A stretch of DNA of 64,000 nucleotides from Candidatus Nanohaloarchaea archaeon (GTDB lineage: Archaea > Nanohalarchaeota > Nanosalinia > Nanosalinales > Nanosalinaceae): positions 36,716 to 100,715 of the forward strand of contig JBDGRK010000005.1 in NCBI GenBank assembly GCA_042218075.1. The letters run 5' to 3'. How positions within the stretch are numbered: position 1 is the stretch's first letter; every line of letters starts with the position of its first letter. Positions 18,244 through 44,673 of this stretch are shown piece by piece. The position numbers and the translations under genes were made by a program. Under the pieces are notes generated by a model, which saw only the letters and a program-made list of their open reading frames with translations, did not search any database and was not told where the DNA came from.

Positions 18244-18337
18244 ATGAAGGGTGGACGCTTTTCCGGTCGGAAGGTTTTCGAATGAACCAAAACCTGTTCT
18301 AGTTAAAGCTTTCTTCCAAAGTGGTTGGTATGCTTGA
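18244..18337 (+). promoter_or_regulatory. Putative Ser-sensing frameshift leader of serS
   Basis: uORF 18244-18285 ATG AAG GGT GGA CGC TTT TCC ... TGA; +1 frame open to TGA 18335-18337, overlapping the serS ATG by 8 nt. Confidence 0.75.
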
Positions 18338-21554: not shown

Positions 21555-24500
21555 ATGGAAACCACGGTGATGATCGGGGAGAAGCCGAAAGTGGCATCGC
21601 GACTGGCTAACGCCCTTGGAGATTATTCTGTAGAAGAGAACAGAGGCGTAAAGAACTACGTGATGGAGACAGAAAACAGAGAGATAATCATAGCGCCGGC
21701 GGTTGGCCATATATTCAACCTGGAGCAGACGGAGGAAGGCTGGGATTACCCTGTATTCGACGTGGAGTGGAAACCAATATTCGAGACACAGGACGGAGCG
21801 AACTATGTAAAGAAATACTTCAATAACCTGAGAGATCAACTGGAGAAAGCAGACTCCTACATCAACGCCTGCGACTTCGATGTAGAAGGCGCGACTATAG
21901 GCGGGGTCATACTCAAGGAAATAGCCGAGGCCGAAAATCAGGAGATAGAAAGAATGAAGTTCTCCACGCTGACTCCCTCAGATCTACAGGATGCGTTCGA
22001 CAACCTTGAAGAGTTCGACCACGGAATGACTGAGGCGGGCATCACCCGCCATGTGCTCGACTTCTACTACGGCATCAATGTTTCTCGCGCCTTGATGAAA
22101 GCCGTGAGAAGCAACGACCGCTACAAGACACTATCCACCGGAAGAGTGCAGGGTCCGACCCTGAAGATACTGGCGGAGCGCGAAAGAGAGATAAAGGAGT
22201 TTGAGCCGGAGCCTTACTGGGAGCTCTATCTGATACACGAAGAGTTTGAAGCCCAGTGGGAGGACGAAGAGGACAGGATATGGAAGGAAGAGGTAGCGGA
22301 CAGGATTTTCTCGAAAATCAAAGGAGAGGAAAGGGCAAGAGTTTCAAACATCAAGGTAAACAACTACAAGCACAACCCTCCAATCCCGTTCAACCTGACA
22401 GGACTCCAGAGCGAAGCATCCTCACAGTTCAACCTTTCACCCAAGGCAACGCAGTCGATATCACAGGATCTCTACGAAGAAGGTCTGATCTCGTATCCTA
22501 GAACAGAGTCGCAGAAACTTCCGCCGAAGATAGGTTATAAGAACATCCTCAACAAGCTGAAGAAAAAGAAAGACGATTATAAGGAGAAAGCGGAGAAAGT
22601 TCTGGAGAAGGATAAAAACGATAATCTATACACCACGCAGGGGAAGAAGGAAGATGATGCCCACCCCGCGATATATCCAACGGGAGAGGGATCGACCTCC
22701 AGCCTTTCAAAGAGGGAGAAGCAGGTCTACGACCTGATAGTCAAGCGTTTCTTCGCAGTGTTTGGAAAAACCGCGAAGAGAAAGTCGCTGACGATGACCC
22801 TGAGTGTAAAGGAGGAGGATTTCAAGGCCAAGTCGAAGGTAACGGTGGAGAGAAACTGGTACGACCTCTACGAACCCTATGTGAAGGTGGATGAGGCAGA
22901 ACTTCCCGACCTTGAAGAGGGAGATGTGCTGGATGTAGAAGAGTTCCGGAAGGAGGAGAAGGAGACCCAGCCCCCGAACCGCTACTCTCAATCCAAGATC
23001 GTCAATAAACTTGAAAAGAGAGAGCTGGGAACCAAGTGTCTAACTGAGGAAGAGAAAATAATCGTCAGGGATGGAGATAGTATCGATAGAGTCCCGGTTT
23101 CGGAACTACTTGGAAATCAAAATCGGAATGAAGGCCAGATACAGATTACAAGTTCGAATAAAGATCTGCAAGTAATAGGTTACAACTCAAACTTTGAGAA
23201 AAGTGGCTTTTCAGCCATAAGTAGAAGAAAATTGGAGGAGGATGAAAAAGTTGTAGAATTAAAATTGAGAGATTCTTCGACAATTAATGTAACTTCAAAT
23301 CATCCTGTACTAGTACTTGAGGATGGAGAAGCAGTCTATCGGGAAGCTGGGAAAGTTGATAAAGGAGATAGATTAATCAGATCTCACAGAGCGGATGTTG
23401 GATCAGTTAATCAGATAGGATTTGAAGAATTTATCCAGAAACTGGACAGAAAATCATCTCTCTACGGCGACTGCAAATTCAGGAAAGAGAGAGAAAGACT
23501 TGGTCTCTCCCAGAAGAATATGGCGGATAGATTGGAAACTCCCAGATCCACTCTGAGCAAGGTGGAAAATAGAAAGCATGGTCTGCTGAGATACTGGAAG
23601 AAAGCAAACCTTGAAGAACCAGATTATATCTCTAGTGAGAACTTTGAGTTAAAAATTCCAAATCCTTTCCCGATTAAAATCTCTCCGGCGTTTATGCGAT
23701 TGGTAGGGATGCTAGAAGGGGACGGCTCACTAGATATTGAGGGAAAGAAAAAAGAGAACAAGCTTGATTTCCGTTATCATAATACTGAGAAGGAGCTGGT
23801 TAACCAGTTCCGCAGAGATGTAGAATCAATCTTTAGATTCAGACCTGAGATAAAATGTGAACCGCCAAGCACAGGCGACCTGGATCGTTATTACGTTCGG
23901 TTACCAGCTGTCATTGGTAGGATTATGTCAATTATTACTGAAAATCTATCTCGAAAATGGATAATGAAGCAGGATAGAGGGAGCCATTACGTGGGTGCGC
24001 TACTAGCGGATGAAGGACATGTATCAAATTCAGAACCTAAAATATTCATCTCCAATACTGATAAAGGTATACTTCAAAACTGCAGTGAAATACTTCTTTC
24101 TAAAGGGATAGACTCGAAAATAAATATGTCGCAGAAAAAAATCTATATCAGAGGCCGTAGAAATCTGGAAAAATTCCTAGAAGAAATACCTATATTTTCT
24201 ACCAGAAAACATCAGGCGCTAATAGACCTCCTGGAGAGACACTACAAATTTGGGGGAGAGGAGTCCAGTTTGATGAAACAGAAAAAGATTCTGAGCAAAG
24301 TACAGGAAAAACCGAGGACACTGAAGGATATATCGGAAGGACTTGAAATGTCGGAATCCGCGGTAAAGCATCAACTCTACAATCTAAGAGACAAGGGATA
24401 CGTCGAGAAGAAGATAGAGGGAATCTCAGAAAGACCCAGGAAAATCATATTGTATGAATCAACGGAACCTATATCCGAAACATTCTTCAGCGAACTTGAT

Positions 24501-25202
24501 GAGAAGGCATTTGGAGAGGCTCATACGGCAGAAGTTGGTTCCGTAAATGAAGTAAAATATAGCGGTTATGTCTACGATATATTAGATACAGAGAATAATA
24601 ACTTTATTCTTGACAACAGAACAGTTGTCCACAACTCTACCAGGGCACAGACCGTGGATAGACTCTACGACCGGAACTATATTGAAAACCAGCCGATAGA
24701 GGTCACTGACCTGGGACTTGTGATAGTCGAGACACTGGAAGAATACTCCCCCGACCTTGTCTCAGAAGAGCTGACCAGAGAGTTCGAGAAGAAGATGGAA
24801 TCCATCCGGCAGGAGAAAGAGTCCCGGGAAGAAGTTCTGGACGAAGCCCAGGACAAGCTTATCGAGACTCTGACAGGTTTCCGGGAACACCAGAAGGAGA
24901 TTGGGAAGAAGCTGGTGGAGACTATAGACCAGGAAAGGCAGAGGAGGAGACAGCTCGGTCCATGCGATCAATGTGAGGACGGCACACTGAGGATGATAAA
25001 GAAGGGCGGTTCAAGGTTCGTCGGCTGTTCAAACTACCCTGACTGCGAGAACACCTATCCCCTGCCGAACAACGGCGACATAGAGTCTACCGATGAGATA
25101 TGTGATGAATGCAACACGCCGAAGATTTTCGTGGATAGAGATAAAGGAAAGAACTACAAAATGTGTATTAAAGTCTCATGTCCTACTAAAGACAACTGGT
25201 AA
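21555..25202 (+). CDS. topA: DNA topoisomerase IA with intein
   Basis: IGEKPKVA (TOPRIM), ACDFDVEG, LSTGRVQGPTL, LISYPRTES, C-terminal Zn ribbons; insertion between LGTK and STRA. Confidence 0.96.
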   Translation: METTVMIGEKPKVASRLANALGDYSVEENRGVKNYVMETENREIIIAPAVGHIFNLEQTEEGWDYPVFDVEWKPIFETQDGANYVKKYFNNLRDQLEKADSYINACDFDVEGATIGGVILKEIAEAENQEIERMKFSTLTPSDLQDAFDNLEEFDHGMTEAGITRHVLDFYYGINVSRALMKAVRSNDRYKTLSTGRVQGPTLKILAEREREIKEFEPEPYWELYLIHEEFEAQWEDEEDRIWKEEVADRIFSKIKGEERARVSNIKVNNYKHNPPIPFNLTGLQSEASSQFNLSPKATQSISQDLYEEGLISYPRTESQKLPPKIGYKNILNKLKKKKDDYKEKAEKVLEKDKNDNLYTTQGKKEDDAHPAIYPTGEGSTSSLSKREKQVYDLIVKRFFAVFGKTAKRKSLTMTLSVKEEDFKAKSKVTVERNWYDLYEPYVKVDEAELPDLEEGDVLDVEEFRKEEKETQPPNRYSQSKIVNKLEKRELGTKCLTEEEKIIVRDGDSIDRVPVSELLGNQNRNEGQIQITSSNKDLQVIGYNSNFEKSGFSAISRRKLEEDEKVVELKLRDSSTINVTSNHPVLVLEDGEAVYREAGKVDKGDRLIRSHRADVGSVNQIGFEEFIQKLDRKSSLYGDCKFRKERERLGLSQKNMADRLETPRSTLSKVENRKHGLLRYWKKANLEEPDYISSENFELKIPNPFPIKISPAFMRLVGMLEGDGSLDIEGKKKENKLDFRYHNTEKELVNQFRRDVESIFRFRPEIKCEPPSTGDLDRYYVRLPAVIGRIMSIITENLSRKWIMKQDRGSHYVGALLADEGHVSNSEPKIFISNTDKGILQNCSEILLSKGIDSKINMSQKKIYIRGRRNLEKFLEEIPIFSTRKHQALIDLLERHYKFGGEESSLMKQKKILSKVQEKPRTLKDISEGLEMSESAVKHQLYNLRDKGYVEKKIEGISERPRKIILYESTEPISETFFSELDEKAFGEAHTAEVGSVNEVKYSGYVYDILDTENNNFILDNRTVVHNSTRAQTVDRLYDRNYIENQPIEVTDLGLVIVETLEEYSPDLVSEELTREFEKKMESIRQEKESREEVLDEAQDKLIETLTGFREHQKEIGKKLVETIDQERQRRRQLGPCDQCEDGTLRMIKKGGSRFVGCSNYPDCENTYPLPNNGDIESTDEICDECNTPKIFVDRDKGKNYKMCIKVSCPTKDNW
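23037..24635 (+). mobile_element. Intein with LAGLIDADG endonuclease and HTH domains in TopA (533 aa)
   Basis: Starts CLTEEE, block B VTSNHP, LVGMLEGDG and VGALLADEG motifs, ends VVHN followed by Ser; visibly AT-richer than the exteins. Confidence 0.93.
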
Positions 25203-25207
25203 ATACT

Positions 25208-26707
25208 TTAGATTTTTAGTTTTCTATTGAGCTTTTCAATCTGTTTCTGGCTGTAACTCTGGAACTTTGGTTCATATCTATAAAATGTCTTAAAGAACCG
25301 GATTACCGTCCAATTTCTCAAATAATATTTATACTTATCTCTAATCACAGTTGTGTCAAATAGTTTCTCCAATTTTGAGGCAGTATCACTATTTTTATTC
25401 TGGATTCTTAGCTCATCTTTGCTAGATATCAAGTTAGATGCTATATTATCTATATTTTGGGATACCTTGACAGGCAATTTTACACCTGAATTAGAATTTC
25501 CTCTCAATCCTACTTTGAACTCCACTTCTTCTTTATTCAATTTCTCCAAAAAAGTTTCTCTAGATTCAAATATTGAATCTAACTTCTCTACAGAAGCAAA
25601 ATCGATTTCATTCTCCCAAGCATAAACCTGATTTTTTGATATACCTAATTCAGATCCTAATTCCTTCTGGTATAGATTATTCCTTTCTCTATAATCTCTA
25701 ATCTCATCACCCAATCCTAGGACCCTTAAATCGCTGATTTTTCCAAGATCAAAGTATGGTAAGTAAAAATTATGATTTCTTCTTCCCCTATAACACAGAG
25801 TCCTGGATCCATTTTTCAGCTTTGAAAAAATATGCTTTTTCTTCCTAGGATGTGCAGATCCAATCTTTTCGCAAAAGTATTCGAAATAATTACCTGAAAT
25901 CCTAATCCTGCCAACACCGTTCCTTTCTCTTCTATTTTTAGTCTCAATTCCCATATACTGAAGATCAGAAACACATTGATCGATAAAATGATCAGTTGCG
26001 GATGTTATTGTTACACGGTTACTTTGAGAAGAAACCGCACCATCTGCATCAAATAAACCCCTCCAATAAGCACCCAGCAATTCTTCATCTTCACTAAAAA
26101 GACTTGGCCGCCTTAATTTTCCTTTTTTATAAGATTCTGGCAACTTGAAAAAATATCTGAGGAACCTACAGAACCATTTATTTGAAACAGTCAGTTGAAT
26201 TTTATTTCCTCTATCTAGAATAGTTATAGATTTTTGAGGTATACCAAATAGTCTTTGAATCTTCATTGACATATCCTCGATAAAATCTCTGGAATGTGAG
26301 ATTTCCGAATCATTCTTTCCTCCGTCCACTAAAGTCCATCTAGATGAGTCAGAGAATCCGCCATCACCAGCAGCCAGACCAGCGAAATAAGCATATTCAT
26401 CTGATCTTAATTCAGAAATAAATCTAGGAGGATCAAATCTTGATTTATCTCCATATCCTGTGATGTAATCTATAGCTTCAGCTAGTTCTTTTGAACTATA
26501 TCTTGTTAAAAAGATTTCCAAAGGCCATAAGTTTCGCTCTTCGCAATTCCTAATTAAATAACCTTCATAATTTTCCAGATCAGTAGAATCAAAATTAAAT
26601 CTAGAGTTAAGCTTAGCGTATGGCTTCTCTCTAAAAGTTTTATCCAAATCTCTAGAGACCGATTCAACTATTTTAAGCTCTCCAGACTCGTAAAATAGCT
26701 CTTCCAT
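25208..26707 (-). CDS. Free-standing LAGLIDADG homing-endonuclease-like protein with XRE-type HTH
   Basis: FAGLAAGDG and WRGLFDADG motifs; LYQKELGSELGISKNQVYAWEN HTH; AT-rich; no intein termini. Confidence 0.85.
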   Translation of the reverse strand: MEELFYESGELKIVESVSRDLDKTFREKPYAKLNSRFNFDSTDLENYEGYLIRNCEERNLWPLEIFLTRYSSKELAEAIDYITGYGDKSRFDPPRFISELRSDEYAYFAGLAAGDGGFSDSSRWTLVDGGKNDSEISHSRDFIEDMSMKIQRLFGIPQKSITILDRGNKIQLTVSNKWFCRFLRYFFKLPESYKKGKLRRPSLFSEDEELLGAYWRGLFDADGAVSSQSNRVTITSATDHFIDQCVSDLQYMGIETKNRRERNGVGRIRISGNYFEYFCEKIGSAHPRKKKHIFSKLKNGSRTLCYRGRRNHNFYLPYFDLGKISDLRVLGLGDEIRDYRERNNLYQKELGSELGISKNQVYAWENEIDFASVEKLDSIFESRETFLEKLNKEEVEFKVGLRGNSNSGVKLPVKVSQNIDNIASNLISSKDELRIQNKNSDTASKLEKLFDTTVIRDKYKYYLRNWTVIRFFKTFYRYEPKFQSYSQKQIEKLNRKLKI

Positions 26708-26821
26708 AATATTTCTAACTTTGAAATATTAAAATACCTGATCCAAAATCTTCCGCTATTCCGGGAGAAAAGAAATAAGGGAAAAATAAAAGAGAGCTAT
26801 CATATTGTACAAGAAGGTTAA

Positions 26822-27196
26822 TCACAGCGAGGATTCAGAGAATTCACCACCTCTCTCAAACATTCTGGCCTGGCTTTCACCCCCATCGACAGAAGAGTTG
26901 TGCCGAACATCCCTCATTTTTTCTTCGTATTCCTGTTCTTGCTCTTCCACTTCTCCTCCATCGGTTGCAACAGGTTTCAGGAAGTCTTTAGTCTGTCTCC
27001 AGTTGGGTAGAGATCTCATTCTCTGCATCATTAATTCATTTCCAACCTCAGCAGACATAACTCCCTCATAGTCGCTATCTGTTTCAGGAGTTACTCTGTA
27101 CTTGCTTCTTCTAGTCTCCTCTACATGGTAACCGTTTCTATCAAACTCTCTCGCCTCTTCTTCAGTGAGATCAAGGTAAACAGAGTTTCCAGCCAT
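26822..27196 (-). CDS. Orphan acidic protein with ATDGG motif
   Basis: Start MAGNSV at 27196 shares TGATG with the upstream mini-ORF. Confidence 0.65.
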   Translation of the reverse strand: MAGNSVYLDLTEEEAREFDRNGYHVEETRRSKYRVTPETDSDYEGVMSAEVGNELMMQRMRSLPNWRQTKDFLKPVATDGGEVEEQEQEYEEKMRDVRHNSSVDGGESQARMFERGGEFSESSL

Positions 27197-27279
27197 CAAG
27201 ATCTCCCCCAAGAGCTGTTTCTATTCTCGTACTGGTTTTTGACGTTTGCGTCGTGGTTGTGGTGTGTTGTGTTTGTCAT
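27196..27279 (-). CDS. Mini-ORF (27 aa) coupled to the downstream orphan gene
   Basis: SD AGGTGA; MTNTTHHNHDANVKNQYENRNSSWGRS*; TGATG overlap. Confidence 0.6.
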   Translation of the reverse strand: MTNTTHHNHDANVKNQYENRNSSWGRS

Positions 27280-27284
27280 GGTTG

Positions 27285-27555
27285 TCACCTACAGCAAGAA
27301 GCTGTTCCCGACCTGCCAGGCCAAGAAACAGCGAGAAAACTCTACACAATAAGCAGCAGCACAATCAGGATAATCGAAACTGCACTGAATTCAGATACTT
27401 TCGAAAACAAACCAGAATCCATATTTGAGAAACTAACCGAGCAGAACATGTCCACCCTGGATAAAGCATCCACCCTGCACAAAATATTCACCCGTGGGGG
27501 CCGTGGACAGTGCTTTATGGAACATAGTCGTTAAGTCTCCTCTATTCTTTATAAA
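27285..27555 (-). promoter_or_regulatory. Putative Val/Ile/Leu-sensing triple-site frameshift leader
   Basis: TTTATAAA 22 nt before ATG 27525; uORF 27433-27525 with GGT GAA TAT TTT GTG / GGT GGA TGC TTT ATC / GGT GGA CAT GTT CTG; +1 frame ends IILIVLLLIV* at 27342; hairpin follows. Confidence 0.75.
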
Positions 27556-27563
27556 ACTCAGGT

Positions 27564-28418
27564 TCAGCGCACCTCTCCGGAAAGAAATTCTATAACCCTG
27601 TCGGTTCTGCTCTGAGCCGACTCCAGGTCGAACTCCTCGCCAAGTTGCTCAAACTTTTTCCTGAAAGCTTCTTCGTCGCCTATTATCTCGGAGAGTTCCT
27701 CTGCCGACTCTATAAATCTCTCCCTGACCTCCTCATTCTCGGGATTCTCCGCCTGTATAGAACCGTAGAGCCCGGCTTTTTGATTCAGTATTCTTGCGGT
27801 GAGATCAGTTATAAGCTGGTAGACCGGCGAGGAATAGTTTGAGATTTCCTCGCCAGAAAGATCAGATTTCCTTATAGTCTCCGCGACAACAAGCTCGGAG
27901 AAATGCATCAATCCCTGGACTATAGACATCGCCTCATCGTGAGTCTCCGGATCGGTGATATGTGTTTCCGCCCCTCTGCTCTCCCAGAACTCCTCCATCT
28001 CCGTCCATTTCTTTCCCTTCTCCGGGCACAGCACCACTTTCTGTCCTTCAATAGAATTGGTGGGAGCGTACATAGGATGCATTCCAAGAACCTCATCCGA
28101 GTACTTCTTCATCGCTTCAACCGGTTTCTTCTTCACCGAAGTGATATCGCAGAAGAGAGCGTCTTCAGGCACTTCTTCCCCTACCTCGTGGATCACTTCA
28201 ACGGTCACAGAGATCGGGACCGCCACAATTACAACATCCGCACCCTCCACAACCTCAGAACTTCTACCGTAATCCCAGTCTTCTCCCTCAGCGGCTTCTC
28301 TCGCTTTCTCCAGCGATCTACCTGAAACGGAAACCTCATTATTCTCTTCTAGATGACCGGCGAGATGCTGACCGAACTTTCCCGTCCCTCCAACTATCGC
28401 GACTTTCTTTCCTATCAT
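27564..28418 (-). CDS. tyrA: Prephenate dehydrogenase
   Basis: VAIVGGTGKFG Rossmann motif, DITSVK, GMHPMYAP, HDEAMSIVQGLMH. Confidence 0.93.
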   Translation of the reverse strand: MIGKKVAIVGGTGKFGQHLAGHLEENNEVSVSGRSLEKAREAAEGEDWDYGRSSEVVEGADVVIVAVPISVTVEVIHEVGEEVPEDALFCDITSVKKKPVEAMKKYSDEVLGMHPMYAPTNSIEGQKVVLCPEKGKKWTEMEEFWESRGAETHITDPETHDEAMSIVQGLMHFSELVVAETIRKSDLSGEEISNYSSPVYQLITDLTARILNQKAGLYGSIQAENPENEEVRERFIESAEELSEIIGDEEAFRKKFEQLGEEFDLESAQSRTDRVIEFLSGEVR

Positions 28419-31406: not shown

Positions 31407-33341
31407 TTAATCCTGTCTTGACTGCTTGGCCCTCTCAGTCTCCATCCTCTGTTCCTTTTCAGAGGTGAGTCTCTTGGCTATCAGGTAGTAGGCCTCTCTC
31501 AGCTTCTTCAGGTCCTCGATCTCGCAGTACTCGTCTTTCCTGTGCACCATCTCCTGGTTCAGACCTATCTCCACGTAGGGAGTACCCTTCTCAGCAAAGT
31601 ATCTGCCGTCGGAAGTTCCCCCTTCCGTAATGTGTTCAGGTTCTCGACCCAGGACTTTCTGGAGTTCTTCAGTAGCTATCTTCCTGAACCTCTGGTCCGT
31701 GAGCTGGTATGCTCCGCCGTGATCAACTTTCGACTCCACCACGACATCAACTTCCAGATCTTCAAGCTCTTCCTCAATCCTCTGCCTGATCTCAAGGGTC
31801 TTTTGCTCGGGCGTGTACCTGATATCCATACCTATGTGGACTTCAGCTGGCAGGCTATTGTAAGTATCATCGCTGGATATTAGTGTCGGAGCAAGCGTTG
31901 GATCAGGAAGCTTCTTGTTTTCCACCTCCAGTTCCATTTCATTTAGGCGTTCCAGAGCCTTCGGAAGCGCCTTCAGCACATTTTTCTCCGCGTCCTCGAC
32001 TCTGGATGCGTGGACTGTATCTCCCTGGAGGTAGACATCAAGCCAGAATGCTCCTCTTGTTCCTGTCTGGATATCTAGATCGGTTGGCTCACCGTTAATC
32101 ACGTAATCGAAGCCATCCCCATCCCTGTAGTAGCTCTCCACCAGTGCCTTAGTGCCGTTTTCACCTCCTATCTCTTCATCGCCAGATATCATCAACACGG
32201 CTCTACCGTCAAAGTTTGGATCTCTCCTGAGGTCGACGAATGCCTTCATCATGGCCGCCACCTCGGCCTTCATATCCGTTGCTCCACGGCCGTAAAGCTT
32301 TCCATCCAGAACTGTGGGATCAAACGGATCAGTTACCTCCCAACCCACTCCAGGTTCAACAACATCGAGGTGACCGTTGAAGCAGACGGAAGTGCACCCG
32401 TTTCCTATCTCGGCCGTGAGGCTCTTTACACCCTGGATGTCGTGTATATCTGATTTTATCCCGTTTTCCTGCAGGTAACGCTCCATAGTTCTGAAGATTT
32501 CGGGATCCTTCACCGGGGAGACTGTCTCCTGGCCTATCAGCTCTTTCGCAACATCCACAATATCTCTATCATCGGTTTCAAGCTCTTCCTCTCTGACTCT
32601 GCGCCCCTTGTAGCCTATCTTGTGGGAGTAGCCCTTGGTTGACATCACTATTGGATAGAAATCTTCTTCCGCCCTGAGTTCTTCTCCCTCTTTCCTGGCG
32701 AAGACCTCTCCCTCTTCAACTTTCTCGAAGTTCCTTGCTGTGAACTCGTAACCCGATCCCTTTTCCTCTCCGAATATGCTGAAAATATCCGGGTCGCTGA
32801 CCCTGTAGTCCGCGTCTATAACACCTTCAGCAGCGAGGAAGTTCACCATGATATCATATGCGTTCTCCGCGGCTTCCTCTGAACCCGGCTTGCCGCATTC
32901 CACTGAGATACCTCTCATGTAGTTCATCATGGTCTCCGGCATCCAGGAAAGATCCACCGCTGTATCCAGTCCGGAGTTCTTGACCAGATCTAGATCCCTC
33001 GGATCTATGAAGAAACCGAAAGGCGTGGGCTCTGACTCTGTGGAGTGGAAGTCAAGAACTTTAAGACCCTCTACTTCCTCAAGCAGTTCCGCAGCTAGCC
33101 TCTCCTCGTGTACATCGCTTTCAGGGTCTCCCGGGAAGCATCTGTTCAGGTCTTTCTCGATGTACCTTTCCCCCTCTTCCCTTGCCTCTTCATTCGCCAG
33201 AATAAACTTTACCGCTTTCTTCAGCTCGTGTTCCGACCGCTTCAGCTTCCTCATCGCCTTCAATCCGCAGTCCTCCACGCCGTGAACACATGCTATAAGC
33301 GCGTACTCCGGCTTACCCTCACCGAGAATTTCCACCTTCAT
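31407..33341 (-). CDS. Fusion of AstE/AspA-like deacylase and M20 (DapE/ArgE-like) metallopeptidase
   Basis: N-terminal VHGVEDCG/DLNRCFPG/DFHST; C-terminal FNGHLDVV, GRGATDMK, DEEIGG, GEPT, GGTSDGR. Confidence 0.88.
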   Translation of the reverse strand: MKVEILGEGKPEYALIACVHGVEDCGLKAMRKLKRSEHELKKAVKFILANEEAREEGERYIEKDLNRCFPGDPESDVHEERLAAELLEEVEGLKVLDFHSTESEPTPFGFFIDPRDLDLVKNSGLDTAVDLSWMPETMMNYMRGISVECGKPGSEEAAENAYDIMVNFLAAEGVIDADYRVSDPDIFSIFGEEKGSGYEFTARNFEKVEEGEVFARKEGEELRAEEDFYPIVMSTKGYSHKIGYKGRRVREEELETDDRDIVDVAKELIGQETVSPVKDPEIFRTMERYLQENGIKSDIHDIQGVKSLTAEIGNGCTSVCFNGHLDVVEPGVGWEVTDPFDPTVLDGKLYGRGATDMKAEVAAMMKAFVDLRRDPNFDGRAVLMISGDEEIGGENGTKALVESYYRDGDGFDYVINGEPTDLDIQTGTRGAFWLDVYLQGDTVHASRVEDAEKNVLKALPKALERLNEMELEVENKKLPDPTLAPTLISSDDTYNSLPAEVHIGMDIRYTPEQKTLEIRQRIEEELEDLEVDVVVESKVDHGGAYQLTDQRFRKIATEELQKVLGREPEHITEGGTSDGRYFAEKGTPYVEIGLNQEMVHRKDEYCEIEDLKKLREAYYLIAKRLTSEKEQRMETERAKQSRQD

Positions 33342-35176
33342 CAGACTCTCGCACCCTGATTCTCGCCGTATTCAGTTGCCGGCATAAGCCCAAGGACATC
33401 CTCCAGATGCGCCTCAAGATCTCCAGCGTATGATGGAGCCATCGCCCCTGCTGTATCCATAACATCTGAATCGTACACATCCCTGTAAATATCCATCCAT
33501 TTTTCCTCTTCGTCAAGTCCAGGGAGGGTCTCAGGATCTGAAGGATCTAAACCTTCTACCTCTTTCTCGAAAGCCTGCCTGATCTTTTCACCGTGAGGCA
33601 TAACTGCTGCCTTTGCAAGAGCAACCTGGTACTCGTCATCGTAGTTCTGTCTCGAGACTCTGTACTCGAATCCTCCTGTAGCTGGCTTGGGCCTTACATC
33701 GTGGTGGATGCCCGCCATATGGGCGATTGAGACGTTTCGCTTGTGGTATTCGTCTTTTCTCTCTTCGTCCATTCCCTTGAGGTCAACCTTTCCTCTGACT
33801 CTCTCAAGTTCCGGTTCCTGATCTGAACCGGAATTAACCACCTTTGTGAATTCAATATCGCCGTCTTCAATATATTCCGCCGGTGTCTTGGCATCATCTG
33901 GACTGAGAGCGAGGAGTGTTACATCTTCCAGCTCTAACTCCTCATCTCCGTAAAACTCGACATATTCCTCGTCAGGAGGCAGGACCCAGACCATGTGATG
34001 CTCTGTCATGTAGTGATCCATCATGTTCTCGAACTCTCCCATTTCTCTCTCCTCATCCAGTAGCTTTTCAATGAGAGTCCAGGGTGTTCCGACCCTGTCT
34101 TGCTTGTCTTCTCCTTCAATCTCTGAAATCACGTGCTGTGCGTAAGTGTCATGCTCCCAGTATACCTGGTTGACTGCGGTCCTGGAGGTTTCTCCCTCGT
34201 ATTCAACCTTTGTGTTCGAACTTACCGTTTCAAGACCTCTCTCGAACAGCATCCTGTAAACAATCTCGTCTGAGATTCTCTGGTCCAGATCAAGGTTGCC
34301 GTTCTCATCCGCAAAAAGTCCTGAAGTCAACTGTGTCGAGCCGCCGAACATGTTAAGAGCGACCTTCGGCCCGAATATCGTGGCCATGTAGTCGAAGTAG
34401 TACGGAACATCGGTGAAATGATCAAAGTACTGGTTCAGGAATGCAAGAGCCTCATCCCTCTCCCATTCCTCCAATTTACCTCTTTTAATTACATCTCTTC
34501 CATCTGTCTCATCCGGAACTTCTTCAGGATCTGTGAACTGCGGCGTCAGTCCTTCTTCAGCGTATTCCAGGGCAGGGAACTCTCTTTCAAGGTAATTCTT
34601 CGTGCCCTCCTTGAAGCTTTCAAGTATAGCCAGCAGAAGACCGAACTCTCCATCTTCAGTGACTCTCACTGCTCCGGAATCTATCTCCTGCTGGGCCCCA
34701 AGATCGAAGTCAATTTCGGGCGTGGAAACCGCTATATCCTGGTCCGAGTCCTCAGTTAAGTCAAGTTTTAGAGCCGCAGGTTTCTGCCCGCCATGACCTT
34801 TCTCAACTACTTTATCCAGTTCAAACTCAAATTCCTCTCCGTATTCATCGGTTCTCTCTCTTAACTCCGAGTCTATCTCGCTCCAGAGCTCCTCGTTCAG
34901 AATCTGCTGATAAACAGGTGAAAGAGGCATCACTCCCTCCTCATTTAAAATCGGATTCTCGCTCTCAATACCGATTCCGACTCCTTCCGAGGAAGAGGCA
35001 TCGACATTCGAATTTTCCTCATAGTTCTCTTCCCAGTCCTCAACAGCACTTTCTCTAAAATCATCGTAAGAAAGGGTTTCCTCTACCTGATCATCTTCTT
35101 CAAGCATCTCTTCCACTGTTTCATTCTCCGAATCTCGGCTTTGAGATTCCGAAACATTTGCTTGTGAAACTGACAT
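33341..35176 (-). CDS. Divergent glutamate-cysteine ligase (GCS2/YbdK-like) carboxylate-amine ligase
   Basis: GIGIESE, GSTQLT and HHDVRPKPATGGFEYRV match the order of GCS2 motifs; SD AAGGTGA before ATG 35176; TGATG overlap with the peptidase fusion. Confidence 0.6.
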   Translation of the reverse strand: MSVSQANVSESQSRDSENETVEEMLEEDDQVEETLSYDDFRESAVEDWEENYEENSNVDASSSEGVGIGIESENPILNEEGVMPLSPVYQQILNEELWSEIDSELRERTDEYGEEFEFELDKVVEKGHGGQKPAALKLDLTEDSDQDIAVSTPEIDFDLGAQQEIDSGAVRVTEDGEFGLLLAILESFKEGTKNYLEREFPALEYAEEGLTPQFTDPEEVPDETDGRDVIKRGKLEEWERDEALAFLNQYFDHFTDVPYYFDYMATIFGPKVALNMFGGSTQLTSGLFADENGNLDLDQRISDEIVYRMLFERGLETVSSNTKVEYEGETSRTAVNQVYWEHDTYAQHVISEIEGEDKQDRVGTPWTLIEKLLDEEREMGEFENMMDHYMTEHHMVWVLPPDEEYVEFYGDEELELEDVTLLALSPDDAKTPAEYIEDGDIEFTKVVNSGSDQEPELERVRGKVDLKGMDEERKDEYHKRNVSIAHMAGIHHDVRPKPATGGFEYRVSRQNYDDEYQVALAKAAVMPHGEKIRQAFEKEVEGLDPSDPETLPGLDEEEKWMDIYRDVYDSDVMDTAGAMAPSYAGDLEAHLEDVLGLMPATEYGENQGARV

Positions 35177-35181
35177 TGTAT

Positions 35182-35390
35182 CACCTTTCAATTAGGAAGT
35201 GCAGAAAGAGCGAATTCTTTTCATGGAGGCCCGCCCTTTCAACACTCCGGGTCGATGGGCCCCCTTCAAACGACTAAAATAATCAGCAGGATAGCGATAC
35301 CGCTGACCAGATTCACTGATCCCGGTTCAAAGTTTTCGGCCAGCGTTTCTAACATATTTGATGCATCCACAGCAAACATTTAAATAAGGT
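35182..35390 (-). promoter_or_regulatory. Branched-chain-amino-acid leader peptide (no frameshift site) with downstream hairpins
   Basis: TTTAAA about 23 nt before ATG 35355; uORF 35266-35355 MLETLAENFEPGSVNLVSGIAILLIILVV*; GC-rich stem GGGGCCC/GGGCCTC; TCGCTCTTTC can pair with SD GAAAGGTGA. Confidence 0.65.
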
Positions 35391-35424
35391 TTGACAGTAT
35401 TTTATGATCCCGAAATAGTAATAG

Positions 35425-36471
35425 CTATCCGGACCCTGTCTCCTCAAGATACTCCTTTCCCTCAGTGCAGTTTTCTCCAAATTTTTCCAGGTCAGTGTTT
35501 GCGCCACAGAGAGGCACCGCGACCTTTCTTCCCTCCAGATTCATGCCTAAATCTCTGCTGAAAAGCACAGCTGACGCAGCAACTGCTCCCGCAGGTTCAG
35601 TAACGACCTTCTGTCTCTCCGCCAGCATAGCTACAGTCGCCTTCACCTGTTCATCGGAAACATAGACCACTTCGTCGACAAGTTCCCTCATGTGCCCGGC
35701 GGGAAGATCTCCTACCCTTCTCGTAGCTATACCTTTCGCAACTGTGTCGACTGAATCTCTCTCGTACACCTTCTCCCGGTTGATAGTCTGCTTCGCGGAA
35801 CCGCACCCCTCTGTCTGTACACCGACAACTCTTGAATCAGGATTCAGGTGCTTTACTGCCGTAGCGACTCCACTTATTAGACCGCCGCCGCCGATGGCCA
35901 CAAAAACAGTGTTGAGTTCCGGGAACTGTTCCACCATCTCTTTTCCCAGTGTTCCCTGCCCTGCTATAACACCCGGATCATTGTATGGATGGACGAAGGT
36001 TAATCCCTGCTCCTTTTCCAGCTTTCTCGCATATTTCTTCGACTCCTCGAACTCCTCTCCATGGAGAACCACATCAGCACCGTAGCCGGAAGTAGCCTCA
36101 ACCTTCGCATCCGGGGTGTTCTCCGGCATCACTATCGTGGCTTCAACACCAAGCTCTCTGGCGGCGAGAGCAACTCCCTGCGCGTGGTTTCCTGAAGAAG
36201 CTGCGATCACTCCCCTCTCCTTATCTTCCCCGGAGAGCCGGGAAATCTTGTTGTAAGCTCCTCTAAGCTTGAAGGCCCCGGTCCTCTGGAAGTTTTCCAT
36301 CTTGAAACCTACTTTATCAGCTCCGGATTTCTCGGCGAAGGTTCTGGAGAAATCCATCGGAGTTTTCTTCGCGATTCCCTCAAGCCTTTCAGCTGCTCCT
36401 TTTACAGAGCTGTAGCTCACCAGTTCTTCGGATTTTGAAGTTTTCAGCGTTGCGTGGTCGTGTTTTGTCAT
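35425..36471 (-). CDS. ilvA: Threonine ammonia-lyase (short form, no regulatory domain)
   Basis: KMENFQRTGAFKLRGA, ASSGNHAQG, IGGGGL, EPAGA; SD GAGGTG before ATG 36471. Confidence 0.93.
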   Translation of the reverse strand: MTKHDHATLKTSKSEELVSYSSVKGAAERLEGIAKKTPMDFSRTFAEKSGADKVGFKMENFQRTGAFKLRGAYNKISRLSGEDKERGVIAASSGNHAQGVALAARELGVEATIVMPENTPDAKVEATSGYGADVVLHGEEFEESKKYARKLEKEQGLTFVHPYNDPGVIAGQGTLGKEMVEQFPELNTVFVAIGGGGLISGVATAVKHLNPDSRVVGVQTEGCGSAKQTINREKVYERDSVDTVAKGIATRRVGDLPAGHMRELVDEVVYVSDEQVKATVAMLAERQKVVTEPAGAVAASAVLFSRDLGMNLEGRKVAVPLCGANTDLEKFGENCTEGKEYLEETGSG

Positions 36472-36474
36472 TTT

Positions 36475-36647
36475 GCGAAGCACCTCTTGGAGAATAATCT
36501 AAGAGAAAGCTCGATTTCTACCCAATAATACCGATAATCGAAATGATGGAAATAGATCCAGAAACTTCAGAAAAATCAGATAGAGTTGGGACTCCCGAAA
36601 CTTTACTCAGATTCAGTAGACCGAAGGATAAAGCGTCCACCCTTCAT
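36475..36647 (-). promoter_or_regulatory. Putative Ile-sensing frameshift leader of ilvA
   Basis: uORF 36603-36647 ATG AAG GGT GGA CGC TTT ATC ... TAA; +1 frame ends ISIISIIGIIG* at 36518; CTCTT/AAGAG hairpin over the SD. Confidence 0.8.
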
Positions 36648-36701
36648 TGACGAACTCACAGAATTATAAAGAGAAATAAGAATTTAAAAAGGGAAGGGAG
36701 A

Positions 36702-37469
36702 TTACATTCCCATAGTTCCCTGAGAATCGACCTCATCTGTTTCCGGAGTTCGGTCTCGAACATAGCTATCTATAGATGTTCCCGGCATGTAGCCTCTTGA
36801 TTTAATGTACTCCTCTCTGGCTTCAACTATAACTTCATCCGGTATCTCAACATCTCTTCGAGCTTCTGGAGCCCCATCATACCTGTTAGCGGTTACAGCA
36901 TAGCGAGTATCTCCTTCGAGAAGCTGGGTTATCTGCCACTCATGAACCGGATTGATATTGCTCCCAGTGACTTCCTCAAGAAAGTTCTCATCATCTATAT
37001 CCGTCTCCTGCGCCAAGACCCTTATCATCTCCAAATCGTCCACACCAAGATATTCCTCCTCTTCAGGCACTCTATCTCCATAGATCAGAGAATCCGGCAT
37101 CTCATCTTTATAGATGAAATCTCCTTCTCCCGGATCCCACCATCTCTGATCTCTCGGATCCTGTCTGAACTCTACAGTCTCAGCACCACGATTATCAGTG
37201 CCGCTCTGAGTTTGAGTTATCACACCTCCATCGGTTCTTGCTTCATAACCCTCTTCTTCAAACATGAATTCTGAGGCGGTTTCCATATCGCTTTTCTCTT
37301 CCATGATAGAATCGTGGGGATGTTCTGTACTTGTACCGGGATCCCGGCTTTTAGCTTCATTCGGATTTGTGGGCGGAGATTCATCATGAAGAATTTCATG
37401 AACCCTGATGCCTTCTCTGAGTCTTTCATCCAATTCTTCCCTATTCTTGTACTGAGACTTACCCATCAT
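36702..37469 (-). CDS. Orphan acidic protein with RTDGG motif
   Basis: 255 aa ORF, SD GGAGGTGA, ATGATG overlap with the mini-ORF stop. Confidence 0.7.
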   Translation of the reverse strand: MMGKSQYKNREELDERLREGIRVHEILHDESPPTNPNEAKSRDPGTSTEHPHDSIMEEKSDMETASEFMFEEEGYEARTDGGVITQTQSGTDNRGAETVEFRQDPRDQRWWDPGEGDFIYKDEMPDSLIYGDRVPEEEEYLGVDDLEMIRVLAQETDIDDENFLEEVTGSNINPVHEWQITQLLEGDTRYAVTANRYDGAPEARRDVEIPDEVIVEAREEYIKSRGYMPGTSIDSYVRDRTPETDEVDSQGTMGM

Positions 37470-37546
37470 CTCTCACCTCCTTCTACAGCTGTTTCCACGG
37501 ATTTTGAGTCGCGTTGCGTATGTTGGGTTTGGTTGTAGTTTGTCAT
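37466..37546 (-). CDS. Mini-ORF (26 aa) coupled to the downstream orphan gene
   Basis: SD GAGGTGA; MTNYNQTQHTQRDSKSVETAVEGGER*. Confidence 0.6.
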   Translation of the reverse strand: MTNYNQTQHTQRDSKSVETAVEGGER

Positions 37547-37548
37547 AG

Positions 37549-37757
37549 AGTGTTCACCTCGAAATTGAGAAACGAGAAATGAACACTGCGCTTTTTACAG
37601 CAGCAGTGCCAGCAGAATCAAAAGTAGCAGTGAAAGTCCAAGATCAATTGAATCGGAAATCGAGAAAATAGCTGGAGCTCGTTTATCGCAATTCCAGAAC
37701 GCGTCCACCTATAGTTAATGGCTCCATACTATTTCCCGTTTAATCAGTCTTTATAAA
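37549..37757 (-). promoter_or_regulatory. Putative Leu-sensing frameshift leader with anti-SD hairpin
   Basis: TTTATAAA 22 nt before ATG 37727; uORF 37683-37727 with GGT GGA CGC GTT CTG; +1 frame ends LGLSLLLLILLALLL* at 37595; AGTGTTCA..CTCG/CGAGGTGAACACT stem at 37549-37587. Confidence 0.8.
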
Positions 37758-40454: not shown

Positions 40455-40805
40455 ATGTCCAAGGAAAAGGAGGCCTCGCTTCTCACCTACAACACTCACA
40501 GGGAAAAGTTCGAGTCCGTGTATGAAAGAAACAAGTTTTACCGCGGGCTATTCGGCTACACGCAAAAGGTGAAGAAAAACGGGAAGACCTACGAGTATGA
40601 GAAAGATGGACTGATGGACGAGATACCCAACTCAAGGATCGACGACTCTGTATTCATAATCGCAAACCACTACGTCACAAGAATCGAAGACTACTTCCAG
40701 GACTGGGGAGAAAAGGTCTCCCACCATATTTTCAAAGTCATAATCGAGGATAAGAACATCATCGAGCAGATAAGAGGAGATAATTATGAACGACAACAAC
40801 AATGA
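40455..40805 (+). CDS. Conserved hypothetical protein upstream of cdc48
   Basis: 116 aa ORF (FYRGLFGY...GLM...SVFII); TATA-like TTTAAA upstream; overlaps the cdc48 start. Confidence 0.7.
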
Positions 40806-43800
40806 AGACGGAAGCAGGGCGAGGCTCCGAGTAGGAGAGGTACCGCCCAACGCACAGCAGGACATCGGAAAAGGCATAGTCAGGATAGACTCCAACGTGA
40901 TGGAGGAACTGGGAGTCTCGGAGGGTGATGCTGTAACAATAGAAGACGAGAGGGAAACCGTAGGAAGAGTCGCGAGAAGCTATCCCGCAGATAAAGGACT
41001 CGGTATCGCGAGAATGGACGGTTACATGAGAAAGAACGCAGGGACTTCTCTCGGACAGAAGGTAGAGGTTGAGAAAGCCGAGCTGAAAGAGGCTGAGAAA
41101 ATCACCCTCGCACCTGCAGAGGAAGGAGTGATGATCCAGGTCCAGAACCCGAAGATATTCCAGAGAGCTCTGAGAGGAAGGGCGGTGATGCAGGGCGACA
41201 TAGTAGTTCCGGGGGATGGAGACGATCGCAGAAAATCGATATTCGACGACGTATTCGACATGGAAGCCGATCGCTTCAGGTTCTCTTTCGGGCAGGAGAC
41301 GAAGCTGGCTGTGGTCGACACAAATCCAGGAGGAGCAGTAAAGATCACTGAAGCGACCGAGATAGAGGTCAAGCAGCAGGCAGTGGAAGACGTTGAAAAA
41401 CAGCAGGTGAGAGTACCGGAGGTAACCTACGAGGATATCGGAGGCCTCGAATCAGAGATACAGCAGGTCAGGGAGATGATCGAGCTGCCTCTAAAACACC
41501 CTGAAGTGTTCCAGCAGCTGGGGATCGAGGCTCCCTCAGGAGTACTGCTACACGGGCCTCCCGGCACCGGAAAAACTTTACTCGCGAAAGCGGTCGCAAA
41601 CGAGGCGGATGCCACATTCATGTCCATCAACGGTCCGGAGATCATGAGCAAATTCTACGGAGAATCCGAGAAACAGCTCAGAGAAAAGTTTGAGGAGGCG
41701 CAGGACAACTCTCCCGCGATAATCTTCATAGACGAGATCGACGCAATCGCCTCAAAGAGAAGCGATGTAGGAGGCGAGGTGGAGAGAAGGGTTGTGGCGC
41801 AGCTTCTTTCCCTCATGGATGGACTCGAGGAGCGCGAAAACGTTATCGTGATAGCCGCGACAAACAGGCTTGACGCTATTGACGAAGCCTTGAGAAGGGG
41901 AGGAAGATTCGACAGGGAGATCGAGATCGGTGTCCCGAACAGGGAAGGTAGAAAGGAAGTGCTCCAGATTCACACCAGAAACATGCCCCTGACAGACGAC
42001 GTCGACCTTGAAGAAGTCGCGGAGAAAACCCACGGCTATGTCGGGGCTGACATAGAGGCGATGGCGAAAGAAGCCGCGATGAGTGTTCTGAGGAGAGTTC
42101 TCCCCGAGATAGACCTCGACGAGGAGATACCTAGCGACGTGATGGACGAATTAGTAGTTGATCGGGATGCAATGCTCGAAGGAATAAGAAAGGTCCAGCC
42201 CTCAGCGATGAGAGAGGTCATGGTCGAAGTTCCGCAGGTCACCTGGGAAGAAGTCGGAGGACTGGAGAACACGAAGGAACAGCTAAGAGAGATGGTGGAA
42301 TGGCCGCAGAAGTACCCTGAAAGGTTCGAGAAGATGGGTATAGAGGTTCCTAAAGGAATACTTCTCTACGGTCTGCCGGGAACAGGAAAGACTTTACTCG
42401 CAAAGGCTGTCGCGAACGAGGCGAACGCCAACTTTATCTCCATAAAGGGGCCTGAAATTTTCTGCCTGTCCGGAGATACACCTATAGTCACAGATTTCTG
42501 CGGTAGAAGGTCAATCGAGGAGTTCTACGATAGAGCGGTTGAAATTAGTGAAAAAGTCCATAAGGATGATAGAAAGACAGTCTTCGAACCTGAGGAAGAG
42601 ATCAGGACGAAAGGCATCGACGAGAATGGAGAAATAGTTGATTCCAAGGTCGATCGGTTCTACAGCATAGAGGTGCCCAAAAGTTACAGGCTGGAGTTTG
42701 ATGATGGCAGTTCCATCCATGTATCCGGCAACCAGCCTTTCTATACGTCAGAAGGGTGGAAGAAAGCTTCAGAAATAGAAGAGAAAGAAATGGTGGCATC
42801 GCCTTCACGGATAGACTCCTTCGGGAAGGATCGGATTGAATGGGAGCAACTTGACCGGGAGAACTTCCACATTCAGAAAGAAGGAGAACTGGTAGCTCTA
42901 GGCGATACAGAAGTAGAGGAAATGAATCATATCACTTATGCTAGGAAACTAACTTCGGAGGAGAAAACTATACGGATACCGGAGGAACTTAATCCTTCGC
43001 TTTCAGAACTACTGGGATTTATCTCGGCGGAGGGAAGCCTTAAAGAAGACGAGGTAAGGATAGCAGCGAGTGATGAGGACAACAGATCAAGAATAAGAGA
43101 GCTGCTGGAGGAAATATTTGAGGAAGAAAGGATAAATGAGAGAGAAGACGGTTTAGCTGTTTACTCCAGAGCATTTGTAGAACTTCTGCATCAAGGTTTC
43201 GATATTCCAAGAGAGGATAAAACAGCAAATATCAGAGTGCCAGGACTGCTCTTCAAGGCTTCCGAGAAGAACTGGAACGGATTCCTTAAGGGAGCTTTCA
43301 GGGGGGACGGCTACATAGGCGAGAAAAAAGTGGATTACTGCTCGAAGAGCGAGGAACTTGTCGATGGAATATCGACACTGTTAAGGTTCAAGGGATTCAC
43401 TCCGAGAAAGTTTGAAGACGGAGAAGGCTACTTCCACGTCAACCTAAGCGGTAAAGGCGAGATAACAAGGTTCAGGTCGGAAGTGATGGGAGAGGAGATA
43501 GAGATTAAAGAAGACAACAGGAACAAGCAGAGACCGATGCCAGACATGCGAGAGGAGGTAGAAGAGCTTAGGGATAACCTCAGGATGACCTACGGCAGAG
43601 ATATCAAGGAGGGAGTTATAGCACCCATTATCGAGAGAGAGCAGGAATTCGGGCAGGATAGGGCCAGAAAACTCGTGAATGCTTTCAGGGAGAGAACCAA
43701 AGAAGTTGAAGAATTAGAGATTGAGGAAACAATAGGGAGCCTGAGAGAGGCGAAAGATGTGCTGAAAGTTACTTGGCCTGAACTGGAAATGGAACTCGGT

Positions 43801-44673
43801 TACAATCCAAAATACCAGCTGAACGGGAAAAATGAATACGGGGAGAAACACGAAGAGATCAGAGAATACCTGGAAAAAGTGAGGGAATCAATCCTATCGG
43901 ACCGAAACTTCGAGACCCTACAGAAGCTTGACACCGCATCCAGAGATCTCGCATGGAAACAAATTGAATCAATTGAACAAAAGGGAGAAACCACGATGTA
44001 CGACCTTGAAACCTCGACAGGTAGCCTCATAGGCGGACAAACGCCTCTGATGCTTCACAATTCCAAGTATGTTGGAGAGTCAGAGGAAGCGGTGAGAGAG
44101 GTCTTCCAGAAAGCAAGGCAGGTAGCGCCGTGCATACTCTTCATAGACGAGATCGATTCTATAGCAACGAAGAGAGGATCCAGAACAGATTCAGGAGTCG
44201 GAGACAGAGTTGTCAACCAGCTTTTGACAGAGCTCGACGGAATAGAGGATCTGGAAGGAGTTACCGTGATCGCCGCGACGAATCGGCCCGACCTGATCGA
44301 TCCCGCTCTCCTGAGGCCGGGAAGAATAGACAGAGATATTGAGGTTGAAAACCCTGACCTGGAAGCCAGGAGGAAGATCCTGAAAGTTCACACGAGGGAC
44401 ATGCCGCTCTCCGATGAAATAGATCTCGATGCTCTGGCTGAGAAGATAGACGCCTACGTTGGTAGCGACATCGAGTCTCTCTGCAGGGAGGCCGCGATGC
44501 TCGCACTTAGAGAAGATCCGGACTCGGAAGAAGTGAAGATGGAGCATTTCGAGGAAGCTATGGAAGAGATCAACCCGACCGCCACAGAGGAAAACGTCGA
44601 GCACTACAGGCAGATGATGAAAAGGATGAAAGAAATGGAAGAACCTGATGAAAGCCCGGATTACTACGCCTGA
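40786..44673 (+). CDS. cdc48: CDC48/VCP family AAA+ ATPase with intein in D2
   Basis: N-domain, two Walker A ([16 protein letters not shown]) and Walker B (IFIDEID, LFIDEID) sets; insertion between KGPEIF and SKYVGESE. Confidence 0.96.
42463..44061 (+). mobile_element. Intein with LAGLIDADG endonuclease in CDC48 (533 aa)
   Basis: Starts [15 protein letters not shown] and [10 protein letters not shown] motifs, MYDLET block F, ends MLHN followed by Ser. Confidence 0.93.

Follow-up and report, generated by a model that had tools for sequence, protein, structure and literature searches.

A probable translated short reading frame at the head of a ligase-like/deacylase mRNA in a nanohaloarchaeon, beside a family of codon-matched leaders

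The E. coli ilv and leu leaders are the classical branched-chain leader-peptide attenuators, and the ermC and cat leaders act by translational attenuation, in which the Shine-Dalgarno (SD) sequence is masked and stalling of the leader ribosome exposes it. Two further systems are described in the accessible parts of the papers that report them: the branched-chain leader-peptide attenuator of ilvBNC in Corynebacterium (PMC10272879, PMC11857589), and the leaderless polycysteine short open reading frames (ORFs) of mycobacteria, which are cysteine-responsive attenuators (bioRxiv 10.1101/834739). Here we compare with these systems a 29-codon upstream ORF (uORF) at 35266..35355 on the minus strand of a 64,000-nt window (the whole stretch of DNA analysed, from contig JBDGRK010000005.1 of Candidatus Nanohaloarchaea archaeon; positions are those of the window unless a contig is named). 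We find that the uORF is probably a translated, lineage-specific leader ORF of a ligase/deacylase mRNA, with a regulatory role that is unproven. The source genome is 1.10 Mb, 92% complete and about 48% G+C and encodes very acidic proteins; the records of its relatives carry the names Candidatus Nanohalobium, Nanosalina and Nanohaloarchaea.

The uORF starts at ATG 35355-35353 and stops at TGA 35268-35266, and its product, MLETLAENFEPGSVNLVSGIAILLIILVV, has an acidic first half and a hydrophobic C-terminal end of 16 residues. We infer a transcription start at its ATG and consider translation of the frame likely, because three independent measures, promoter position, codon usage and the tail, point to a real ORF. 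Across 540 long ATG-start ORFs of the genome, TATA-like hexamers peak at –31 to –28, and such a pile-up is the mark of leaderless transcripts. The uORF has a TATA-like box, TTATTTAAAT (35378..35387, minus strand), whose hexamer TTTAAA starts at –29 from ATG 35355; a hexamer at such a position is found at 86 of 3509 intergenic ATGs (2.45%). The codon-usage score of the uORF is 0.172, compared to 0.295 ± 0.217 for in-frame 29-codon windows and –0.339 ± 0.264 for stop-free wrong-frame windows, 1.9% of which reach the uORF's score, and the 19 non-hydrophobic codons at its beginning are also coding-like in usage. The frame ends in a hydrophobic ten-codon run, ATC GCT ATC CTG CTG ATT ATT TTA GTC GTT (35269..35298, minus strand; IAILLIILVV), and this is the sole case with at least eight of ten terminal Ile, Leu or Val residues among 925 intergenic ATG-ORFs of 15-80 aa. 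The sequence-only reading, which had proposed a leaderless uORF with nine Ile, Leu or Val residues in its last ten, is thus confirmed as to the tail, which is beyond chance in that set, and likely to be right as to the ORF, from TATA geometry and coding-like codon usage.

The uORF resembles the mycobacterial polycysteine ORFs, as described in the accessible part of that report, in its probable start right at the 5' terminus of a polycistronic mRNA and in its run of codons for few amino acids. In contrast, the mycobacterial ORFs recur and their effect has been measured, while the uORF is a single archaeal orphan with mixed Ile, Leu and Val codons that is known from sequence alone.

Downstream of the uORF, the same strand carries the gene of a 611-aa acidic protein without a Pfam or NCBIfam family (33341..35176, ATG 35176), and then a gene for a fused AstE/AspA-like and M20 (ArgE/DapE-type) deacylase or peptidase (31407..33341), whose start overlaps the stop of the 611-aa gene. 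The SD region of the 611-aa gene, GAAAGGTGAT, lies at 35180..35189 (minus strand), and because the gene has an SD it requires a 5' leader. We found 18 homologues of the 611-aa protein at 45-50% identity, all of nanohaloarchaeal source, and the protein was found in 3/41 related genomes. In the resulting 19-sequence family, HHDVRPK and FEYRxxRQN are invariant. Searches of Pfam, NCBIfam and PDB sequences with this protein gave no match. Its AlphaFold2 model has a mean predicted local distance difference test (pLDDT) score of 58; the best full-length row in Foldseek is a plant glutamate-cysteine ligase (E 0.15, template modelling (TM) score 0.15-0.20), the nearest named clusters in the ESM Atlas are COOH-NH2 ligase and GCS2 (0.80-0.84, under the 0.9 bar), and VIA-align reaches Z ≤7.1. 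These hints are weak and mutually consistent, and we treat as a lead only the suggestion, drawn from models, that the protein is possibly a GCS2-like carboxylate-amine ligase.

In other nanohaloarchaea, we found that the 611-aa gene is headed by a different and conserved leader, which we name after its invariant motif GGTGGACGCGTTCT (loci L002, L017, L020, L021, L023, L024, L025 and L093). These orthologue leaders share a layout of TATA box, leaderless ATG, a short frame with ...KGGRVLP..., the invariant GGTGGACGCGTTCT and a +1 frame that begins at a GTG inside the motif (VDAFYPG...), and their variable codon is Leu. At the two loci where the junctions were read (L002 and L024), the +1 frame ends at or over the ATG of the 611-aa gene. 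No Ile/Leu/Val tail was found in the orthologue leaders of the 611-aa gene at the loci examined. The presence of a leaderless upstream ORF before the orthologous genes as well suggests control of this gene family via translated leaders.

To place the uORF with respect to the GGTGGACGCGTTCT family, we compared it with the family at the level of motif, profile, peptide and architecture. With a position weight matrix (PWM) built from 48 family copies, scores stay below 0 across the whole of 35266-35400, and a motif pattern search matches at 17064, 18247 and 36630 only; at the uORF only GTGGATGC is present. With a profile of other genomes' leaders, nhmmer recovers the window copies A (1.9e-24), C (1.2e-9) and B (1.4e-3) and a copy on contig C40 (2.2e-4), and leaves the uORF unmatched at E up to 10. 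Hidden Markov models (HMMs) of the +1-frame peptide score the uORF at 5.6 and –0.9 bits, and local alignments of the uORF with copies A, B and C are no better than those of shuffles. The GTGGATGC echo lies in an in-frame extension, MFAVDASN (35356..35379, minus strand; PWM score below 0), that would start at ATG 35379 and give a 37-aa frame. It reads 'VDA' in frame, upstream of ATG 35355 and between the TATA box and the probable transcript start, and only faintly recalls the family motif, of which it could be a relic; ATG 35379 has no TATA hexamer at –28 to –31.

In architecture, the uORF is one frame from ATG to tail, with no second frame and no variable codon, and 89 nt separate its stop from the ATG of the gene, while in the six synthetase leaders of this genome the +1 frame overlaps the gene or comes within 1 nt of it. 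What the uORF shares with the family is a leaderless start, the gene cluster and an orthologous downstream gene, and with copies A, B and C an Ile/Leu/Val-rich ORF end; unlike the family, it has no motif, second frame or specifier codon, and its stop is far from the next start. As judged by sequence and architecture, the uORF is outside the GGTGGACGCGTTCT family. The proposal that it belongs to the same regulon as the frameshift leaders therefore stands only in part: orthologues of the 611-aa gene elsewhere carry such leaders, but the uORF itself has neither the motif nor a profile match.

The family has the motif AAGGGTGGACGC[GT]TT (also given as GGTGGACGC[GT]TT) and a variable codon soon after the transcript start. 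When we searched with the 14-mer, allowing at most one mismatch, we found it in 55/70 genomes of the order, with about 135 matches compared to about 10 for a reversed control. We collected 59 distinct leaders, selected by the presence of an in-frame ATG upstream and of short frames; this selection biases the collection toward that architecture. In an independent check on ATGs located 27-32 nt behind a TATA hexamer (39 leaders), 35/39 ATGs share the frame of GGT GGA CGC. Frame 0 has a median open length of 9 codons, compared to 33 codons for the +1 frame, and where the motif is repeated inside one leader the copies are spaced by 18, 21, 21, 24, 24, 36 and 39 nt, all multiples of three.

The variable fifth codon follows G-G-R/C-V/F and differs by downstream gene. 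At least nine other genes of this genome are headed by the conserved leader, and six of nine are aminoacyl-tRNA synthetase genes, assigned by NCBIfam scores that all exceed the curated cut-offs. In all six, the fifth codon is cognate to the synthetase: ACC before thrS (contig C14, C14:68744), TTC before pheS (contig C10, C10:44958), GTT before valS (contig C23, C23:22647), CCA before proS (contig C40, C40:12858), and, on the plus strand of the window, TCC before serS (18247; leader 18244-18329) and TAC before tyrS (17064; leader 17061-17173). In the same 6/6 leaders, the stop of the +1 frame overlaps the gene's ATG or sits 1 base before it. In other genomes, proline fifth codons stand before bacterial-type and archaeal-type ProRS alike. 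An ATC fifth codon stands before the threonine-ammonia-lyase-like gene in two genera. Leu fifth codons stand before a 2-isopropylmalate-synthase-like gene, class-I glutamine amidotransferases and the 611-aa orthologues, and also occur in leaders of genes for small acidic proteins at the head of chorismate mutase and prephenate dehydratase clusters. There is one misfit: at locus L103 (C10:50667, minus strand), a TGG (Trp) fifth codon lies inside or before a 244-aa +1-frame ORF that has no Pfam or NCBIfam family, and an M20 deacylase gene, instead of one for TrpRS, lies downstream, which breaks the codon-to-gene rule.

These features fit a sensor of amino acids in which the ribosome frameshifts by +1 at a starved codon and then re-initiates. 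A ribosome that loads on the 5' AUG and is short of the cognate charged tRNA probably shifts +1 at the variable codon, the shift would be aided by GGGUGGA, an SD-like element located three bases before UUU or GUU, and the shifted ribosome would then read the long frame and probably re-initiate at the overlapping gene start. The proposed mechanism would be akin to that of the prfB cassette. In the literature that we searched on leaders and riboswitches of Nanohaloarchaea, on archaeal attenuation and uORFs, and on hungry-codon frameshifting at synthetase genes, we found no description of such leaders; in the accessible part of a 2021 review of archaeal recoding, the word 'Nanohaloarchaea' is absent and the sole mention of a synthetase is in a reference title (PMC8211752).

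Some family leaders are of a tail type, in which a hydrophobic run closes the +1 frame. The window has three on the minus strand: copy A (leader 37470-37726), copy B (leader 36472-36646), which precedes the threonine-ammonia-lyase-like gene, and copy C (leader 27197-27526; copy position 27560). In 29 tails with 348 residues, we counted Leu 174, Ile 57, Val 31, Ser 21, Ala 15, Thr 12, Phe 9 and Gly 7, and CTG accounts for 119/348 codons. In copy B, the Ile codon and the Ile-rich tail, SISIISIIGIIG, are both conserved in a second genus (SGSIISIIAIIG, locus L013). In 21/30 leaders, the last codons pair with sequence behind the stop. An alignment of 15 leaders gives this tail hairpin 8 pairs, of which 4 show compensatory changes, with the tail as its 5' arm and TAA in the loop. 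A relay layout is found at 37470-37726 of the window (minus strand) and at loci L039-L048, L058 and L084-L087: behind the +1 tail and the hairpin comes a third short ORF, itself SD-led, in which Thr, His, Asn and Gln abound (MTNYNQTQHTQRDSKSVETAVEGGER is one example) and which bridges to the gene. The SD of the gene lies within the end of this third ORF, whose stop codon overlaps the gene's ATG. The 3' arm of the hairpin could also pair with the SD region (AGTGTTCA/TGAACACT in the window and AGTGGTTC/GAACCACT in L048). SD-led starts elsewhere in the family leaders read GAGGTG or GGAGGTGA. The uORF had been said to have the same tail-plus-hairpin module as these leaders, and this is only partly so: at least seven tail bases pair in 21/30 leaders of the family, and in the uORF none of 30 tail bases does, but the true copies B (1 of 30 bases) and C (2 of 30 bases) do not form this pairing either.

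Between the uORF and the 611-aa gene, we found two mutually exclusive folds of similar energy (all features on the minus strand). In the first fold, a GC stem (35225..35264) that begins 1 nt past the stop codon pairs GGGGGCCC (35264-35257) with GGGCCTCC (35232-35225) at –18.8 kcal/mol, and an anti-SD stretch, TCGCTCTTTC (35204..35213), complementary to the SD region, pairs with GAAAGGTGA (35189-35181) over 9 bp with one bulge at –7.6 kcal/mol. In the second fold, GGAGTGTTGAAAGGGCGGG pairs with TTCGCTCTTTCTGCACTTC in an 18-bp hairpin (35196..35248) at –22.5 kcal/mol, which excludes the GC stem and contains the anti-SD stretch together with its stronger partner, GAAAGGGCGG. The GC-rich stem and the stretch able to pair with the SD, both predicted by the sequence-only reading, are present where it had placed them. 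The long hairpin is the sole structure that stands out from shuffled sequence (z –3.28, 1/200 shuffles as stable); the 92-nt spacer is no stabler than shuffles (z –0.99). Anti-SD:SD pairing arises only when the GC stem is forced, and the probability that the SD is unpaired then goes from 0.31 to 0.19. We found no U-tract or oligo-T terminator after the hairpin, where the next bases are CUUCCUAAUUGAAAGG, and Rfam covariance models, T-box included, gave no match at E up to 1 on either strand of 33000-37000.

We propose that the spacer separating the threonine-dehydratase-like gene from the 611-aa gene contains its own archaeal promoter, which would start a leaderless mRNA at ATG 35355. Ribosomes would load on the 5' AUG, translate 29 codons and stop at UGA 35268-35266; past this stop, the mRNA would comprise a structured spacer of 89 nt, then the 611-aa gene with its SD, and then the M20 deacylase gene that overlaps it, so that the uORF would occupy the place that the conserved GGTGGACGCGTTCT leader has in other nanohaloarchaea. 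The likeliest effect would be in cis. A ribosome finishing the uORF would cover GGGGGCCC and block the GC stem, and the long hairpin could then form and keep TCGCTCTTTC off the SD; with a ribosome lagging upstream, the GC stem and the anti-SD:SD pairing could form and the SD would be masked. We regard this cis-acting leader picture as a whole as quite possible, though somewhat short of an even chance. A stricter version, in which the leader is an archaeal ribosome-dependent translational attenuator whose Ile/Leu/Val run determines when the ribosome reaches GGGGGCCC, and thereby the choice between masked and open SD, seems improbable to us; the uORF would then be a frameshift-free, 'sensor-less' or differently wired counterpart of the hungry-codon +1 frameshift leaders proposed for this gene in other nanohaloarchaea. 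Any dependence of the switch that we infer on the supply of Ile, Leu or Val is improbable.

Set beside the known systems, the proposed switch resembles the ermC and cat leaders in that an anti-SD would pair with either the SD or an upstream partner according to the place of the leader ribosome. In contrast to those leaders, where stalling exposes the SD, the modelled geometry at the uORF would mask it, and there is no known inducer. With the branched-chain attenuators, as far as the accessible parts of the reports describe them, the uORF shares its richness in Ile, Leu and Val codons and the alternative RNA pairings that follow; unlike them, it is leaderless, has no U-tract terminator and no conservation that we could see, and precedes genes other than those of branched-chain biosynthesis. 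Because a ribosome at the stop would favour the SD-open hairpin and one held early in the tail would not, slow translation of the leader would lower expression, the opposite of what a biosynthetic attenuator does.

Several observations weigh against the cis-acting leader picture. The six-frame search of 50 genomes of the family recovered the uORF only as itself (E 2.2e-18), with seven further weak matches (E 0.035-0.48), every one inside an ORF of 218-477 aa. The DNA of 35150-35450 was found in 0/25 relatives, and phmmer with the 37-aa query gave 0 matches among 1.84 billion representatives, a search in which the length of the query allows the detection of close relatives only. A metagenome from another study (run X2) has an identical 619-nt contig over 35108-35726, and because this copy is identical there is no substitution pattern that could be read as a signal of selection; two other runs (X3 and X4) have almost no coverage of that segment. 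Neither the GC stem (z –1.00) nor the 201-nt leader (z –1.34) exceeds shuffles in stability. In equilibrium modelling, ribosome masks at the tail, at mid-tail and at the stop leave SD accessibility at 0.28-0.31, although the same modelling on 24 true family leaders moves the SD only from 0.23 to 0.31 and so has little power. The check by folding of alternative structures thus came out mixed, with two exclusive pairings found and no modelled switch of the SD with ribosome position by a low-powered method. Finally, the 89-nt gap from stop to ATG is too long for simple termination-reinitiation, and the 16-residue hydrophobic end equally fits a small membrane peptide.

This last point leads to a reading in which the uORF is a gene in its own right, for a small peptide that is tail-anchored or membrane-associated, acts in trans and merely rides on the transcript of the ligase operon. 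The promoter geometry, the coding-like codons, including those of the non-hydrophobic first 19, and the hydrophobic C-terminal stretch would all be expected of such a gene, and the genome's other TATA-positioned short ORFs resemble real small proteins. Against this, no homologue was found, 16 residues without flanking charge are short for a membrane span, and the site is the position of the regulatory leader in the orthologues, in a cluster with three leaders that have hydrophobic ORF ends; we consider the reading unlikely on balance, but it deserves serious weight. Also unlikely is a second reading, in which promoter and 5' leader are real and the frame itself is incidental or decaying, an unselected relic of, for example, a sensor-less family leader. 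The uORF is lineage-specific and the orthologues' conserved leader is missing here, the in-frame GTGGATGC ('VDA') recalls the VDAF frame of the family, and the tail codons ATC CTG CTG ATT resemble family tails; however, codon usage and tail are both improbable for an unselected frame, and the uORF has no nucleotide similarity to copies A, B and C above shuffles and no profile match.

The sequence-only reading had instead proposed a classical-style Ile/Leu/Val attenuator in one regulon with its neighbours, in which a starvation stall in the tail refolds the leader and raises expression. Nine of the ten final codons are indeed for Ile, Leu or Val, alternative pairings exist, the orthologues' leader has Leu as its variable codon and copy B has an Ile codon and an Ile-rich tail in two genera. 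We found, however, no terminator, a geometry of opposite sign, no modelled switch (in itself weak evidence) and, in the collections searched, no relative of the leader that could show conservation, and the codons are mixed rather than for a single amino acid. In addition, 43/348 residues of the 29 family tails are Ser, Ala, Thr, Phe or Gly, so that the tails are hydrophobic and not strictly branched-chain. The genes downstream of the uORF, for an uncharacterised ligase-like protein and the M20 deacylase, are not those of branched-chain biosynthesis, and in the 92%-complete genome ilvC (below cut-off), ilvB and ilvD (no match) were not found. The classical-style attenuator is thus improbable. 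Far less probable still are two further readings. The uORF product might serve the putative carboxylate-amine ligase and the peptidase next to it as a precursor or substrate, given that a small ORF lies immediately upstream of both; at ten orthologue loci that were read there is no such upstream peptide, and the ligase assignment is merely a lead. It might also be a fragment of an amino-acid-kinase-family gene, since the four best weak matches, from four genomes, fall in one segment of that family (approximately residues 167-197 of an approximately 210-aa protein), the top one at 47% identity over 30 residues in another genus, and the genome's own copy (C15:54221-54835) scores 43 compared to 23.4 ± 3.7 for 2000 shuffles. 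But E values of 0.035-0.3 per genome are expected by chance over 50 genomes, the four matches are orthologous and hence one event, tblastn with the four kinases misses the locus at E up to 10, and identity to the genome's own copy is 8/30. After correction for the number of searches, we rejected the kinase fragment as chance.

Taken alone, the uORF is a modest find, another leaderless short ORF before an operon, with no relatives found. Its value is one of contrast, in that the same gene elsewhere, and at least nine other genes here, are under a conserved codon-matched leader. If these leaders do act through a +1 shift at a starved codon and then re-initiation, the family would be an archaeal counterpart of the bacterial T-box and leader-peptide attenuators, and the uORF would be a natural control, with the same gene placed behind a leader for which no frameshift is required. 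The uORF itself is ordinary; the adjacent leader family is the real surprise.

Every gene surrounding the uORF is oriented on the minus strand. Upstream, from 36483/36471 to 35425 (minus strand), lies the threonine-dehydratase-like gene, which encodes a PALP enzyme close to threonine ammonia-lyase (TIGR01127, 361.9 bits compared to a cut-off of 378.75). As a separate observation, this threonine-ammonia-lyase-like gene with an Ile-codon leader sits in a genome where ilvB, ilvC and ilvD were not found. Beyond the M20 deacylase gene, there are genes for a prephenate dehydratase, an aminotransferase and a prephenate dehydrogenase. Elsewhere in the window, G+C drops to 0.39-0.42 at 24000-28000, compared to about 0.48-0.51 in the surroundings, and a gene for a Cdc48-type AAA ATPase of 1295 aa (40786-44673, plus strand) is split by a LAGLIDADG intein (Pfam Intein_splicing and LAGLIDADG_3).

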